From: a virus
Taxonomy: Duplodnaviria; Heunggongvirae; Uroviricota; Caudoviricetes
DNA length: 12,061 bases
Direction: 5' to 3' (one strand)
Virus record (IMG/VR): IMGVR_UViG_2574180227_000017
This document shows, in pieces, positions 2,501 through 12,061 of this stretch (the first letter of the stretch is position 1; every line of letters begins with the position of its first letter). A program made the translations under genes and the position numbers. Under the pieces are notes generated by a model. That model had not been told where the DNA came from and ran no database searches. It was given only the letters and a program-made list of their open reading frames with translations.

Positions 2501-2556
2501 TTGACACGTTAATTACACCTCATGTAATGTATTTATGTGTAATGACACATTACACA
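2501..2556 (+). promoter_or_regulatory. candidate early promoter (TTGACA 2501-2506, 16-nt spacer, TGTAAT 2523-2528) with a perfect palindrome TGTGTAATG-ACA-CATTACACA (2536-2556)
   Basis: Perfect -35 hexamer, imperfect -10. A 9-bp inverted repeat sits just downstream, and a third TGTAATG half-site overlaps the -10. Confidence 0.35.
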
Positions 2557-2635
2557 CAATCAACACAAAAAGCAAAGCCCCGCACTGTAGGAGCAGTAAC
2601 GGGGCTTCTAACCAACAACGTAAACTAGGAGCCGT

Positions 2636-3194
2636 TATGGTTGCCGTAAATCATATACCACACCTTGTACACACACAAACGGCCTTTGTGTGGCGTTTTC
2701 TGGCACTGAGTGCCGGAGAAAAAAACCGCTTGATCGCCACCAGCAAAAATGGCTATGATTCCCGCGCACCTCATAAAACGGGTGTCGGGATTAGCCTCCT
2801 GAAAACAACTGAAGCGCACAGCACGCGCCCCGCGTGTTTTTTTGTGCCGCATAGTCACACCTTATCAATGGTGGGCTGTACGGGGGCGGAGCAATCCGCG
2901 CCGGTTTCTTCAGTGTCCGGTAAGGCTAACCCTGTACAGTCCGCCACCAGCGAAATTAGCCTTTTGCGTGGCGGTTATCTTAACCACACTGAGGAGGCTG
3001 CCAACATGGCTACTATCCCTACCCTTGTACATTCTCAAACCGCATTTATCTGGCGCTTTATCATCTTTGGCGCGTCAGAATCTCAAATCATCCACGTAAC
3101 CGCCTGGACGGAACGCGAAGCGCGTAGCCGTTGCCCGTCCGGTTGTGTTGCTGTATTCGCCGCCCGTATTCGTCAGGGGTCACATCATGCGTAA
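2636..3194 (+). CDS. hypothetical protein with C-terminal ~60-aa module, possibly Icd-like (internal SD+ATG at 3006 could express the module alone)
   Basis: SD TAGGAG before ATG 2636 and SD GAGGAGG before in-frame ATG 3006. C-terminal module MATIPTLVHSQTAFIWRF...TEREAR...FAARIRQG is paralogous to the C-terminus of ORF 3187-3654, and a degenerate copy (HLVHTQTAFVWRF) sits near the N-terminus. Differences between copies are enriched for synonymous changes. Confidence 0.4.
2822..2843 (+). terminator. intrinsic terminator-like hairpin inside the leader/ORF (possible attenuator)
   Basis: CACGCG-CCC-CGCGTG followed by TTTTTTT. A related G-TTTTTTT-GTG element recurs at about 3310-3325. Confidence 0.45.
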
Positions 3195-3654
3195 AAACCG
3201 CTTGCAAAAAATTATCACGGGGCTGTATGCTTCCCCCGTCGCCCACATGGCGACCGGGTTTGACAGCCTGAATACTACAGCGGACAGCCGCTTACATTCC
3301 GATATGCGGTTTTTTTGTGTCCGTAAACCTACCCATACCCGCATTATGGCGGGGCGTAACGGGGGAGCCTTTGCGCTCGCTGGTTCCTGTAGTGCCAGTC
3401 TGTCAACCCTGTTACGTCTCGCCACCATGTTTGACAGCGTAGTAGCGAGACTCCTTAATTTCACTACAGGAGCCTTTCACATGGCTGTATTCGCACGCCC
3501 TTATTTTGTCTGGCGCTTTATGCAGTGCCTGACAGACAGCATTGCAATATTCACCGTTACCGCTGCCACTGAGCGCGAAGCACGTGCACAGCTGCCGCAC
3601 GCACATCTGATTTTTGTCGCCCGTATTCGTCAGGGGGAAACCTATGCACAATAA
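3187..3654 (+). CDS. hypothetical protein with C-terminal ~58-aa module, possibly Icd-like (internal SD+ATG at 3481)
   Basis: ATG 3187 overlaps the stop of the upstream ORF. C-terminal module MAVFARPYFVWRF...TEREAR...FVARIRQG is paralogous to 3006-3194. The N-terminal half has poor protein-like composition and may be RNA rather than coding. Confidence 0.4.
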   Translation: MRKNRLQKIITGLYASPVAHMATGFDSLNTTADSRLHSDMRFFCVRKPTHTRIMAGRNGGAFALAGSCSASLSTLLRLATMFDSVVARLLNFTTGAFHMAVFARPYFVWRFMQCLTDSIAIFTVTAATEREARAQLPHAHLIFVARIRQGETYAQ

Positions 3655-3865
3655 AACCACACCGGACGCAGCCGCCGCCGCACTCACTACGCTGATGCAC
3701 GCGCTTATTGATATTGAATGCACAGCAGAGCTTGCACAAAAGGAAGAAAGGGAAGAATACACACTATTCGCCCTGGAATGTATCCGATACACCGCCACGC
3801 GGTCGCTGAATGACGCTAAAAATATTCTTATTGCTGATTGTAAAAATGGCGGTGGTTATGCGTAA
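3644..3865 (+). CDS. hypothetical small protein (73 aa)
   Basis: SD GGGGGAAA before ATG 3644. Start overlaps the end of the upstream ORF, and the same CGTCAGGGG-N-ATG junction occurs at 3180-3189. The ORF track extends this to 3614. Confidence 0.4.
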   Translation: MHNKTTPDAAAAALTTLMHALIDIECTAELAQKEEREEYTLFALECIRYTATRSLNDAKNILIADCKNGGGYA

Positions 3866-4091
3866 TATTTATCTTGAAACAATAGACCGCGCATTTATTG
3901 CACTTTCTCACAGTGAAAGCATGATGGAAATATTGCGCATATGGCTTGAAACACTTGGCGACAATGAACGCGACAAACAAAAATCAAGAATTGCCACGGC
4001 ATTAATAACGCTTCTTGAGCCTGTAATAAATGAGTTGCAGGAAATAGAGACATTACACGACCAGTATAAAGCGCCCCACACCGGAGAATAA
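3858..4091 (+). CDS. hypothetical small protein (77 aa from ATG 3858; ORF track start 3810)
   Basis: ORF with GGTGG upstream of ATG 3858, overlapping the stop of the upstream ORF. Part of a chain of overlapping small genes. Confidence 0.35.
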   Translation: MRNIYLETIDRAFIALSHSESMMEILRIWLETLGDNERDKQKSRIATALITLLEPVINELQEIETLHDQYKAPHTGE

Positions 4092-4096
4092 AAATA

Positions 4097-4396
4097 ATGA
4101 AACTTAAATATTCTGGCTTAACTGCCAGTGGCAACACTCACCCTAAATTTACGCGCGGTGATATTTACCGCGACCAGTACGGCGGCACGGTAATGATTAA
4201 GGGCGTGGCGGGACGGTGCGTAACTTACCGCCGTGAAGGTTACGAATATGATTGCGTGATGCCTGTTTATCAGTTCCGGCGTGATTTTTCTCTGGTACAG
4301 ACCGCGCCGCATAACGTGCCCACCAGCAGGGAGAAAGCACGCGCCAATATTCAGGAAATAAAAAAGATGCTTAACGTATTCAGGGGTAAAAAATGA
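4097..4396 (+). CDS. hypothetical protein (99 aa), translationally coupled to the primase gene
   Basis: SD GGAGAA upstream. Stop overlaps the primase ATG (ATGA at 4393-4396). Confidence 0.55.
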   Translation: MKLKYSGLTASGNTHPKFTRGDIYRDQYGGTVMIKGVAGRCVTYRREGYEYDCVMPVYQFRRDFSLVQTAPHNVPTSREKARANIQEIKKMLNVFRGKK

Positions 4397-6141
4397 AACT
4401 GGCACCGAACGTAAAAAAACAGCCACGCGGAATAAAACACAAAGACACAGAGGTAATTATCTTTGCGGGTAGTGATGCCTGGTCACACGCGGAACAATGG
4501 CAGGAGCAGGATGGCCCCGCATCCGGCGATAATGTGCCGCCTGTGTGGCTTGGGCCAAATCAGCTTGCCGAACTTGATGCACTGAAAATTGTTCCGGATG
4601 GAAAAAAACGCGTAAGGCTGTACCAGGCCGGAGAACTGGATTTGGTGGAGACCAAAAAGATTGGTCAGAAGCTGGCGGCGGCAGATATTCAGGACGCAAA
4701 TTTTTACCCCGAAGGAATGCACGTCCAGAAGTGTGAAAACTGGCGGCGCTATCTGAATGCTGAGCGTGAAAATATTGCCGCAGGGCTTACCATGCCGGAG
4801 CAGAAAAATACGCAACTGGCACAAATGGCAGACAGTGAGCGCGCGCAGCTGCTTGCCGAGCGCTTTGATGGCGTTTGTGTGCATCCGGAAAGTGAAATCG
4901 TTCACGTATGGCGCGGCGGGGTATGGTGTCCGGTCAGCACAATGGAACTTAGCCGCGAAATGGTGGCGATCTATTCAGAGCACAGGGCCACTTTCAGCAA
5001 GCGCGTAATCAATAACGCCGTGGAAGCGTTAAAAGTTATTGCCGAACCAATGGGCGAGCCGTCCGGCGATTTGCTGCCGTTTGCCAATGGTGCGCTTGAC
5101 CTGAAAACGGGGGAATTTTCCCCGCACACGCCGGAGAACTGGATCACCACGCACAACGGCATTGAGTACACGCCACCAGCACCAGGGGAGAACATCCGCG
5201 ATAACGCGCCAAACTTTCATAAATGGCTTGAGCACGCAGCCGGAAAAGACCCGCGCAAGATGATGCGTATATGTGCCGCGCTGTACATGATTATGGCGAA
5301 CCGGTACGACTGGCAGATGTTTATTGAGGCCACCGGAGACGGCGGGAGCGGCAAAAGTACATTCACCCACATCGCCAGCCTTTTAGCGGGGAAACAAAAC
5401 ACGGTAAGCGCGGAAATGACATCGCTTGATGATGCTGGTGGGCGTGCGCAGGTTGTCGGGAGTCGTCTTATCGTCCTGGCAGACCAGCCGAAATATACAG
5501 GCGAAGGCACGGGCATCAAGAAAATCACGGGCGGCGACCCCGTGGAAATCAACCCGAAATATGAAAAGCGTTTCACTACGGTAATCAGGGCGGTGGTGCT
5601 GGCGACCAATAACAACCCGATGATATTCACCGAACGGGCCGGAGGCGTGTCACGTCGTCGGGTTATTTTCCGCTTCGACAATATCGTAAGCGAGGCAGAA
5701 AAAGACAGGGAGCTACCGGAAAAGATCGCGGCTGAAATCCCTGTCATTATCCGCCGCTTGCTGGCGAACTTTACCGACCCTGAGAAGGCACGGGCTTTAC
5801 TACTGGAACAGCGTGACGGTGATGAAGCTCTGGCAATAAAGCAACAGACGGATCCGGTTATTGAGTTTTGCCAGTTCCTGAATTTTCTGGAGGAAGCGCG
5901 CGGCCTGATGATGGGTGGCGGTGGCGATTCAGTGAAGTATACGACCAGGAACAGCCTTTACCGCGTCTATCTGGCGTTTATGGCGTACGCAGGCAGGAGC
6001 AAACCGCTAAACGTAAATGACTTTGGCAAGGCTATGAAGCCAGCCGCGAAAGTTTACGGACATGAATATATTACGCGGAAAGTTAAGGGAGTAACGCAGA
6101 CTAACGCAATAACAACAGACGATTGCGACGCGTTTTTATAA
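4393..6141 (+). CDS. replication primase/helicase, P4-alpha-like (D5_N-type domain plus SF3 P-loop NTPase)
   Basis: 582-aa ORF. Walker A GDGGSGKST, Walker B-like LIVLADQ, motif C VVLATNNNP. Followed immediately by an iteron array, as in P4 alpha/ori and PICI pri-rep/ori. Confidence 0.9.
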   Translation: MKLAPNVKKQPRGIKHKDTEVIIFAGSDAWSHAEQWQEQDGPASGDNVPPVWLGPNQLAELDALKIVPDGKKRVRLYQAGELDLVETKKIGQKLAAADIQDANFYPEGMHVQKCENWRRYLNAERENIAAGLTMPEQKNTQLAQMADSERAQLLAERFDGVCVHPESEIVHVWRGGVWCPVSTMELSREMVAIYSEHRATFSKRVINNAVEALKVIAEPMGEPSGDLLPFANGALDLKTGEFSPHTPENWITTHNGIEYTPPAPGENIRDNAPNFHKWLEHAAGKDPRKMMRICAALYMIMANRYDWQMFIEATGDGGSGKSTFTHIASLLAGKQNTVSAEMTSLDDAGGRAQVVGSRLIVLADQPKYTGEGTGIKKITGGDPVEINPKYEKRFTTVIRAVVLATNNNPMIFTERAGGVSRRRVIFRFDNIVSEAEKDRELPEKIAAEIPVIIRRLLANFTDPEKARALLLEQRDGDEALAIKQQTDPVIEFCQFLNFLEEARGLMMGGGGDSVKYTTRNSLYRVYLAFMAYAGRSKPLNVNDFGKAMKPAAKVYGHEYITRKVKGVTQTNAITTDDCDAFL

Positions 6142-11575: not shown

Positions 11576-12061
11576 TCAGAACGTCCAGACCACACCCGCC
11601 TGAGTTGTGCTGCTTTCTTCACGGGAGAAACGGCTGTCGATACCGAGCGTCAGGCCCGTCAATGTTTGCTCAAAGCCAGCTCCCGCATCAGTGTTCACGT
11701 TGTTGCGGCTGTTAATTACCGAACTCCACATCGCCGTATCGTAATTAACGCCTTTTACGCTACCAAGACGCCCACGCACGGTGTCCAGTTCTGCATCAAA
11801 TACCAGCGGTTGTGCTGCCGCCATATTCAGCACATCCGTGGTTGAAGGGGGCATTTGTACGCGATTCTCTGCGAGACTCCAGCTATGGTTGCCATTATCC
11901 AGCAAGGTATATTCATACGTACTGATATCAACAACGCTTCCGGCATTGCCCAACGTAAATGCCGCATCACCGCGCCCTCCTTTAATCGTGGGATCAGTCG
12001 CCGCGCCATAAACCTGTAGCACTCCATTATTGATCGTAGTCTGGTTTACCGCGCCACCCAT
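11576..12061 (-). CDS. 3' portion of an autotransporter-like (type V secretion, Ag43/AIDA-like) gene; ORF runs off the window at its 5' side
   Basis: Passenger-like repeats (GGAVNQTTINNGVLQVYGAATDPTIKGG). YTLLDNGNHSWSLAEN resembles the Ag43 junction motif YSLNRDSDESWYLRSE as recalled. Ends in the aromatic terminus VWTF typical of outer-membrane beta-barrels, but only about 95 aa follow the junction motif, so the beta-domain looks too short. Confidence 0.45.
   Translation of the reverse strand: MGGAVNQTTINNGVLQVYGAATDPTIKGGRGDAAFTLGNAGSVVDISTYEYTLLDNGNHSWSLAENRVQMPPSTTDVLNMAAAQPLVFDAELDTVRGRLGSVKGVNYDTAMWSSVINSRNNVNTDAGAGFEQTLTGLTLGIDSRFSREESSTTQAGVVWTF

Follow-up and report, generated by a model that had tools for sequence, protein, structure and literature searches.

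Immunity exerted by an antisense RNA is not a new mechanism: its core has been understood for decades from work on P1 and P4. The immunity region of P4 runs in the order PLE - seqA - t1 - cI/CI RNA - seqC - kil in eta - epsilon, and further on to the alpha primase; what is recognised there is a CI RNA and not a CI protein, and eta is translated only from an upstream late promoter, its translation preventing the immunity-dependent termination (PMC10111431, which summarises Forti et al. 1999 on the latter point). In the immI region of P1 and P7 (c4 - icd - ant), the C4 RNA carries two determinants having their sites on both sides of it, the site b2 covers the ribosome binding site (RBS) of icd, and icd is coupled to the next gene. 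In the isrK - orf45 - anrP region of Gifsy-1 in Salmonella, the small RNA IsrK, which the authors regard as structurally homologous to P4 SeqA, stops at an intrinsic terminator with partial read-through, a stable RNA encoded downstream (STnc1160) has complementary sequence with IsrK, and the small open reading frame (ORF) orf45 is translationally coupled to anrP (PMC4825925). Finally, Rfam C4 and isrK match several Gram-negative phage-inducible chromosomal islands (PICIs), inside eta-like genes of the Bro network (Mageeney et al. 2023, PMC10111431). Here we compare with these systems a locus carried by a stretch of viral DNA of 12,061 nucleotides (Caudoviricetes, IMG/VR record IMGVR_UViG_2574180227_000017), the whole of which is called the window below.

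An initial annotation of the window, made from its letters alone, had noticed between positions 2501 and 3660 two tandem units with paralogous small ORFs, hairpins and mutually complementary segments, and had likened them to the immunity regions of P1 and P4. The observation is confirmed and its interpretation supported: on every feature testable here, the element belongs to the P4/P1 family of antisense-RNA immunity. We consider it likely that the region consists of two complete tandem immunity cassettes of P4/P1 type, mutually orthogonal and placed in series before a replication operon, in the Bro/immunity zone of a PICI-type satellite.

Two C4 cassettes in series

We searched Rfam at its curated gathering thresholds and found four elements, all on the plus strand, with E-values from 1e-13 to 2e-9: an isrK / P4 seqA-like element at 2766-2842 (RF01394, 61.8 bits against a gathering threshold of 50), a C4/CI-type antisense RNA gene, C4_1, at 2864-2951 (RF01695, 75.4 bits against 45), a c4-a1b1 element at 3225-3274 (RF03163, 46.8 bits against 46.7) and a second C4/CI-type gene, C4_2, at 3342-3429 (RF01695, 72.3 bits against 45). 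Both C4 matches are full length (model positions 1-87 of 87), both copies have the tRNA-like 3' end GCCACCA, and the minimum free energy (MFE) fold of each 88-nt segment is the three-way junction of this family, made of a long closing stem, two hairpins and a single-stranded junction (-47.1 and -46.0 kcal/mol). The unit transcripts fold at z = -5.1 and -4.5, so that, with the Rfam E-values, a chance origin of these features can be set aside. These four elements bear out the proposed kinship with c4-icd-ant and seqA-cI-seqC. The alignment of the two window units with the cassettes of an Stx2 phage, of a P1-like phage and of P4 gives a common plan: a -35/-10 promoter, a1, b1, a hairpin with its U-run, C4 (containing b' and a'), a2, b2 with the Shine-Dalgarno sequence (SD), and an ATG. 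All the cassette features described in this and the following sections lie on the plus strand.

Cassette 1 begins with a promoter-like site found by the promoter scan (TTGATC-18-TATGAT, 2730-2759), whose predicted transcription start, near 2766, is the first base of the isrK match; the T-A-T...T of its -10 is invariant across satellite, Stx-phage and P1-like cassettes. There follow a1 (GGG at 2787-2789 and UUAGCCU at 2791-2797), b1 (ACUGAAG, 2808-2814) and an intrinsic terminator called by the terminator scan (stem 2820-2838, T7 2837-2843); the complementarity of this upstream element is inverted repeat I17 of the repeat scan. Inside C4_1, b' is the loop of hairpin 2, GUUUCUUCAGUGU (2904-2916), and a' is the junction strand AGGCUAACCC (2923-2932). 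Their downstream sites, supported by inverted repeat I18 and by covariation, are a2, UUAGCCUU (2956-2963), and b2, ACACUGAGGAGGC (2986-2998), the latter containing the SD of the first Icd-like ORF (GAGGAGG). In the MFE fold of cassette 1, the 3' half of the a1 hairpin (UAGCCUCCU, 2793-2800) pairs with this SD (AGGAGGCUG, 2991-2999), and the predicted pairing could possibly be a cis-sequestering structure recalling the inactive "structure A" of isrK. We also considered a C4-controlled anti-terminator hairpin overlapping b1; it was rejected, as the terminator of cassette 1 is far more stable than this alternative.

Cassette 2 is built in the same way. Its promoter-like site (TTGCAA-18-TATGCT, 3201-3230) was found from the alignments and is the positional homologue of the -10 elements of cassette 1 and of the P1-like phage. 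Its upstream element falls below the isrK model and matches the related c4-a1b1 model instead; a1 (GGG at 3256-3258 and UUGACAG at 3260-3266; I7) is followed by b1 (ACUACAG, 3274-3280), directly after the c4-a1b1 match, and by weak hairpins (about 3279-3309) ending in T7 (3310-3316). These hairpins were read from the sequence, the terminator scan making no call there; they could possibly act as an attenuator at the position of P4 t1, and the region 3279-3316 is largely conserved in the a1b1-type cassettes, apart from a few variable columns. In C4_2, b' is GGUUCCUGUAGUG (3382-3394) and a' is CUGUCAACCC (3400-3409), and the corresponding sites, again supported by covariation, are a2, UUGACAG (3431-3437; I14), and b2, CACUACAGGAGCC (3462-3474; the b'/b2 pair is I8), which contains the SD of the second Icd-like ORF (AGGAG). 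In both cassettes b2, with its SD, stands 8 nt before the ATG of the Icd-like ORF.

The direct repeat and the intervening complementary segment first noticed in unit 2 were genuine: they were recovered at 3250-3267, 3421-3438 and 3396-3409 (D10, I7 and I14). Of the two hairpins with T-runs reported together with them, the first is the terminator of isrK while the second is weak and was not called. What had not been seen is that the complementary "B" segment is part of a complete C4 gene, that unit 1 has the same a/b layout, that b' pairs with the SD of each Icd-like ORF, that each unit has its own promoter-like site, that the specificities of the units differ, and that eta-like frames run through the RNA genes.

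The comparison with P4 is particularly close. There, isrK (8692-8615), C4 (8507-8420) and an Icd-like kil occur in the same order as in the window, and the Icd-like match is the C-terminus of the old "cI protein" ORF; since the Rfam and NCBIfam matches come in the same order, seqA-t1, CI RNA and kil of P4 are the counterparts of cassette 1. In the terms used for P4, the determinants b' and a' correspond to seqB, a1/b1 to seqA and a2/b2 to seqC. A constitutive-type promoter lies just upstream of seqA/isrK in P4, the promoter of cassette 1 occupying the position of PLE, kil and icd-like 1 have nearly the same SD and start, and overlapping genes lead downstream to a primase in both elements. However, where P4 has a single cassette the window has a series of two, differing in specificity, and the stretch from t1 to CI is longer in P4 by about 77 nt. 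Cassette 1 can be aligned base for base with the P1-like phage, whose Icd matches the family to which our ORFs belong (NF033153, see below), but P1 has a single cassette, and an antirepressor gene follows P1 icd where the window has a replication operon. In Gifsy-1 too the downstream gene is an antirepressor gene, and there the short IsrK activates translation of its own read-through mRNA (PMC4825925).

Compensatory changes and specificity

We gathered 80 loci with a closely related primase, together with two phage loci, and located the copies of C4 by an iterated nhmmer profile (Rfam gave no C4 in 16 loci negative by nhmmer); this yielded 24 distinct cassettes. Pairs were counted separately in the alignment of isrK-type cassettes (A3) and in that of a1b1-type cassettes (A4), because a joint alignment (A2) shifts by one column between b' and b2. 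For b'-b2 and a'-a2 taken together, 93.9% of the cells are standard pairs in A3 and 99.6% in A4; for a1-a' and b1-b', the figures are 99.5% and 97.3%. The covariation scores range from 0.40 to 0.58, sliding the partners by one to three columns brings them down to 0.14 or less, and none of 500 shuffles reached the observed values. Hence the complementary segments are kept through compensatory changes in the related elements, and their loss there was one of the outcomes that the initial annotation had named as refuting its interpretation.

It is in the six determinant segments that variation concentrates: among the columns of the a1b1-type set, 29 of the 51 belonging to determinants vary, against 27 of the 238 elsewhere (odds ratio 10, p = 2e-11). 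There is reassortment between a and b alleles, of which we counted at least 8 and at least 14, respectively. Different elements carry different a/b alleles in P1 and P7 as well, two phages known for their heteroimmunity.

The two cassettes of the window are mutually orthogonal in specificity. In duplexes computed with the loop and junction segments only, C4_1 pairs with its own a2/b2 at -28.3 kcal/mol and with those of the other cassette at -12.3 kcal/mol, while for C4_2 the values are -31.7 and -11.8 kcal/mol. On the transcribed (plus) strand of the window, the best site of each b' is its cognate RBS (b2_1 at -18.7 kcal/mol, b2_2 at -23.4 kcal/mol).

The Icd-like ORFs and the chained frames

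Each cassette ends in an Icd/Kil-like ORF, of 62 aa in cassette 1 (3006-3194) and of 57 aa in cassette 2 (3481-3654). The Icd-like label first given to them is now confirmed by NCBIfam NF033153 (phage_ICD_like), which recognises both ORFs (59.6 bits, E 2.2e-16, and 53.6 bits, E 1.6e-14, against a threshold of 25). They are paralogous as had been said, with 26 identical residues among 56 aligned and WRF, TEREAR and ARIRQG common to both. At the conserved residues, 18 codons are identical and 8 synonymous. Among the synonymous pairs listed earlier, GAA/GAG for Glu stands, but the pair for Thr is ACG/ACT and those for Ala are GCC/GCT and GCG/GCA, and the pairs CAC/CAT for His and CGT/CGC for Arg lie outside the aligned conserved residues. 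The dN/dS ratios among orthologues (0.36 for icd-like 1, 0.33 for icd-like 2) indicate that both ORFs are under purifying selection.

The strong SDs attributed to these ORFs are present (GAGGAGG 8 nt before ATG 3006, CAGGAGC 8 nt before ATG 3481), and so is the common junction with the next gene: CGTCAGGGG-N7-ATG occurs twice, at 3171-3189 and 3628-3646. As both ORFs end in this way, each stop overlaps the next start, by 8 nt for icd-like 1 and ATG 3187 and by 11 nt for icd-like 2 and ATG 3644. We searched species-representative genomes for tandem ARIRQG junctions; the exact pattern had no match in them, and the 37 matches of a degenerate pattern, lying in unrelated phyla, were taken as chance.

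Both Icd-like frames extend far upstream of their own ATG. Eta-like ORF 1 (2637-3194) has its own SD, TAGGAG, and passes through the promoter of cassette 1, isrK, the terminator and C4_1, in frame into icd-like 1; its first 27 codons or so are a relic Icd-like N-terminus, which is a difference from P4. Eta-like ORF 2 (3187-3654) starts within the end of icd-like 1, crosses a1b1, the U-run hairpin and C4_2 and enters icd-like 2 in the same frame. No stop interrupts the icd1 frame over 2505-3194 or the icd2 frame over 3100-3654; by shuffling, the probabilities of an open frame are 0.006 and 0.02, respectively. Their ATGs (2637 and 3187) are upstream of the cassette promoters and of their -10 elements, giving the nested arrangement of eta and kil. 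In P4 likewise, a frame open over 218 codons contains three ATGs giving an eta of 197-199 aa and an internal SD-ATG giving a kil of 65 aa, and it starts upstream of the internal promoter to run through seqA and CI. When the frame of a kil-type ORF starts upstream of the internal promoter, the long product can only be made from a promoter further upstream.

In all 22 satellite cassettes, the icd frame can be followed back without a stop to an ATG that lies upstream of the cassette promoter, while this is not the case in the two phage cassettes; that of the P1-like phage has its icd frame closed at 53 nt upstream of C4 and contains no eta-like ORF. The 13 distinct a1b1-type cassettes all keep the eta-like frame open, some of them with compensating -1/+1 indels. 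The Pfam family PF10554 (Phage_ASH) matches residues 40-122 of eta-like ORF 1, which are nothing else than translated isrK and C4; the match to this translation covers 2754-3002 of the window and is also seen in the related loci L057, L075, L077 and L022. The Ash family may thus largely model conserved RNA sequence read as protein. In a near-identical island, PGAP records these frames as a pseudogene ("ash family") and as a long CDS of Icd-like type, and annotates no RNA genes.

A promoter with an operator had been proposed at 2501-2556. The promoter-like site, read from the sequence (TTGACA-16-TGTAAT, 2501-2528, plus strand), matches the consensus at 11 of 12 positions, but its -10 is poor and it is not listed by our promoter scan, which omits it because the -10 hexamer has no A at position 2. 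The palindromes are real: two operator-like sequences with TGTAATG/CATTACA half-sites (2512-2529 and 2538-2554; inverted repeat I10) are located between a divergent gene for an Arc-like repressor and the rightward operon. The same block of promoter and palindromes precedes the C4-less relatives L017 and L039, an observation pointing to protein-based control as a separate layer, possibly with the Arc-like repressor acting on the rightward promoter. The leader which follows contains a degenerate duplicate of an SD and start (TAGGAGCAGTAACGG and TAGGAGCCGTTATGG, 2578-2602 and 2626-2640), and its sequence CACUGUAGGAGC is the b2 allele of the cassettes of other satellites (L001_u2, L016_u2) and the second-best site for both b' loops of the window, at about -15 kcal/mol.

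From this layout we propose the following working. As in P1 c4 and P4 CI, each C4 would be cut out of the transcript started at its cassette promoter, and the tRNA-like stem with its 3' ACCA suggests that the cutting is done by RNase P. The C4 RNA would then pair in trans with a2 and b2 and block translation of its own Icd-like ORF; once this translation is blocked, coupled translation would cease and the primase operon would be off, probably by Rho-dependent polarity or termination. The pairing of a1/b1 beside the terminator would feed back on C4 synthesis and limit it, as at P4 t1. If P4 eta is a good guide, transcripts from the regulated upstream promoter (about 2501-2530) would on the other hand carry the start codon at 2637, so that ribosomes would read from 2637 to 3194, restart at 3187 and read to 3654, and restart at 3644 and go on to the primase. 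As such ribosomes translate straight through both cassettes, these transcripts would be insensitive to both C4 RNAs and to the terminators, and translated read-through from the upstream promoter would be the route of induction. As each cassette has its own promoter, the last one would decide to what the element itself is sensitive, and each would bring a further type of immunity which the resident satellite imposes on incoming relatives.

The same layout could serve another end. The cassettes might mainly be modules of toxin control or abortive infection, a toxic Icd/Kil being silenced by its cognate C4 in the manner of type I toxin-antitoxin systems, and the arrays would kill or arrest the cell upon perturbation by a phage rather than gate replication. 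Kil indeed "functions in cell killing" in the summary given by PMC10111431, an Icd-like protein probably acts as the effector of a growth inhibition triggered by a phage accessory gene in ECOR61 (10.1101/2023.04.06.535777), and the cassettes are accessory, mobile and found before different replicases. We nevertheless judge this explanation unlikely. Every cassette is translationally chained to replication genes, the precedent of P4 links the layout to control of alpha expression, and the ECOR61 locus could not be shown to be of the C4-cassette type: its description (10.1101/2023.04.06.535777) would fit an eta-like ORF running through a C4 cassette. Toxicity and replication control are not mutually exclusive.

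Host element, distribution and meaning

Gene content and zone order (Integration - Bro - Replication - Late) identify the element as a phage satellite of the Gram-negative PICI type, with tRNA-Pro as its integration site. The window starts with an integrase gene (1-1242), followed by an alpA-like excisionase/regulator gene (1739-1945) and, on the minus strand, by the gene of the Arc-like ribbon-helix-helix repressor (2328-2507; phrog_228 Arc-like repressor, E 2e-6, with an additional weak YlcI/YnfO match). Downstream of the cassettes, on the plus strand, the controlled operon comprises orf73 (3644-3865) and orf77 (3858-4091), both from the ORF list, a DUF4222 gene (4097-4396; Pfam DUF4222) and a primase gene (4393-6141; phrog_864 DNA primase, E 3e-170). 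The stops and starts of the operon (3644-6141) overlap or are nearly adjacent, and in the ORF list overlapping or abutting genes form an unbroken chain from 2637 to 6141. The window also contains genes for SSB, a lambda-type major head protein, a decoration protein and a small terminase (terS). The SSB and the tRNA-Pro site were assigned through a 98%-identical island of E. coli S1-CAM-02-A, which adjoins tRNA-Pro between yejM and yejO; the yejO autotransporter gene is seen at the end of the window (11576-12061, minus strand).

An inward-facing integrase with alpA, a Bro/immunity zone, a primase/SSB zone and a few phage late genes, over some 10-15 kb inserted at a tRNA or in a gene-specific site, are what characterises a PICI-type element, and the element type and zone order are those of the Gram-negative and helper-embedded PICIs whose Bro-zone immunity RNAs are described in PMC10111431. 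Neither psu nor sid nor delta is annotated in the S1-CAM-02-A island. Since these genes are absent and the late region consists of lambda-like head genes and terS, the element is not a P4-like satellite in the sense of SatelliteFinder (psu, sid, delta, alpha, epsilon, alpA, int): it has capsid, decoration protein and terS where P4 has psu, sid and delta. The int-alpA RNA (RF02996) has no match in the window at the gathering threshold; it is present in the related satellite L033 (849-915, 55 bits).

Of the 59 related loci that extend far enough upstream, 42 lack a cassette, 12 carry one and 5 carry two. Among 5426 complete genomes of E. coli, both cassettes are found in 18 and some part of them in 918, so that cassette sequences of this kind are common. 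The pair is not tied to one replication gene: it also occurs before a divergent primase gene, with 68% DNA identity (L086, L093), and before a RepA-type helicase. A larger array exists in E. coli strain 48 (L134, 1507-2852), where three tandem C4 genes start at 1608, 2086 and 2543 (spacings of 478 and 457 nt). Each has an Icd-like ORF after it, and the array precedes a RepA-type helicase and not a primase. Their three a/b specificities all differ, and one of them is identical to that of C4_2 of the window.

Some alleles are common to satellites and phages. One satellite C4 (L077, 1515-1600) has the same a and b alleles as the Stx2 phage F039, and another (L135, 1608-1695) joins the a allele of the P1-like phage to the b allele of the Stx phage; the comparison of alleles also included a satellite C4 at 2616-2703 of L082. 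RNA cross-talk between satellites and phages is therefore possible. Exact searches of viral contigs for the C4 specificities of the window returned satellite-like loci only, one of them in a contig of 59.6 kb, and identified no helper phage with a matching specificity.

As for the origin of the array, the cassette-less locus L012 has an intact icd which corresponds to the relic N-terminus of the window joined to the C-terminus of icd1. This uninterrupted gene implies that cassette 1 sits inside a former icd gene, where it looks to have been inserted by recombination. In the window, the truncated third Icd-like N-terminus (MVAVNHIPHLVHTQTAFVWRF..., 2637-2716) is fused to cassette 1, and the left end of both cassettes is a 12-nt repeat, AAAAACCGCTTG (2721-2732 and 3193-3204). 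One could then hold that exchange of cassettes through recombination between icd genes has produced the tandem layout as a neutral side effect, and that a single cassette, probably the promoter-distal one, does the work. The position of cassette 1 within icd, the left-junction repeat at 2721 and 3193, the high mosaicism of the region among relatives and the rarity of the arrays (the 18 genomes in 5426) speak for it. We find it quite improbable, however: both cassettes keep a promoter-like site, a full-length C4, the four target sites, an intact Icd-like ORF subject to purifying selection and an eta-like frame that is open, the pair is found on backbones whose primase-region DNA is only 68% identical to that of the window (L086, L093), and an array of three cassettes exists in which all specificities are different.

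A reading of the region as plain coding sequence for proteins (an "Ash family protein" and long proteins of Icd-like type), in which the RNA motifs would be incidental, can be rejected in spite of the long open frames, of the match of PF10554 to the translation and of a PGAP annotation made of CDS only, because the covariance-model matches of C4 are full length and 27-30 bits above threshold, the compensatory changes join sites 60-130 nt apart in a way that protein coding cannot explain, and the counterpart in P4 is the CI RNA and not a CI protein (PMC10111431).

Two immunity cassettes in series thus remain the explanation which we prefer, and several facts weigh against it. The -10 of the upstream promoter (TGTAAT) is poor, the promoter of cassette 2 matches at 8 of 12 positions and is under the threshold of the scan, the terminator of cassette 2 is weak, and the score of c4-a1b1 is borderline, barely at its threshold (46.8 against 46.7). 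The cassettes are not independent lineages, the a1b1-type set being 94% identical on average, and their shared ancestry means that the statistics on open frames and on covariation overstate the number of independent events. Trans-repression, processing by RNase P, the involvement of Rho and the eta-type bypass are transferred to this element by analogy. Finally, as 42 of the 59 close relatives have no C4, the cassettes must be dispensable for the basic life cycle.

Tentatively, one may go further and imagine that PICI-type satellites build arrays of one to three orthogonal C4/CI cassettes, whose a and b determinants diversify and reassort independently, so as to form stackable RNA "immunity barcodes". 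Each added cassette would widen the range of rival satellites silenced by the resident, possibly including antirepressor modules of phages. The element itself would be sensitive to the last cassette only, and the chain of eta-like frames would bypass all the locks. This suggestion is speculative, and we give it distinctly less credit than the identification of the cassettes.

The novelty of the locus looks modest. Homologues of C4 and isrK in eta-like genes of Gram-negative PICIs were already known in 2023 (PMC10111431). What seems to be added is the tandem array of different specificities and the chaining of two eta-like frames, a stacked layout which looks undescribed: the accessible text of PMC10111431 does not mention tandem cassettes, differing specificities or reassortment of a and b, and we found no description of arrays of orthogonal cassettes in the portions of the literature available to us.

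Recognising such stretches as antisense immunity cassettes alters the reading of genetic screens which hit these "proteins". In the cassettes one has a natural source of translational repressors that are orthogonal to one another. Competition between satellites, as suggested by the arrays, would proceed by means of stackable and fast-diversifying RNA specificities, some of which are common to helper-type phages; if satellites do compete in this way, they would offer a simple system in which to follow the evolution of orthogonal RNA-RNA recognition.

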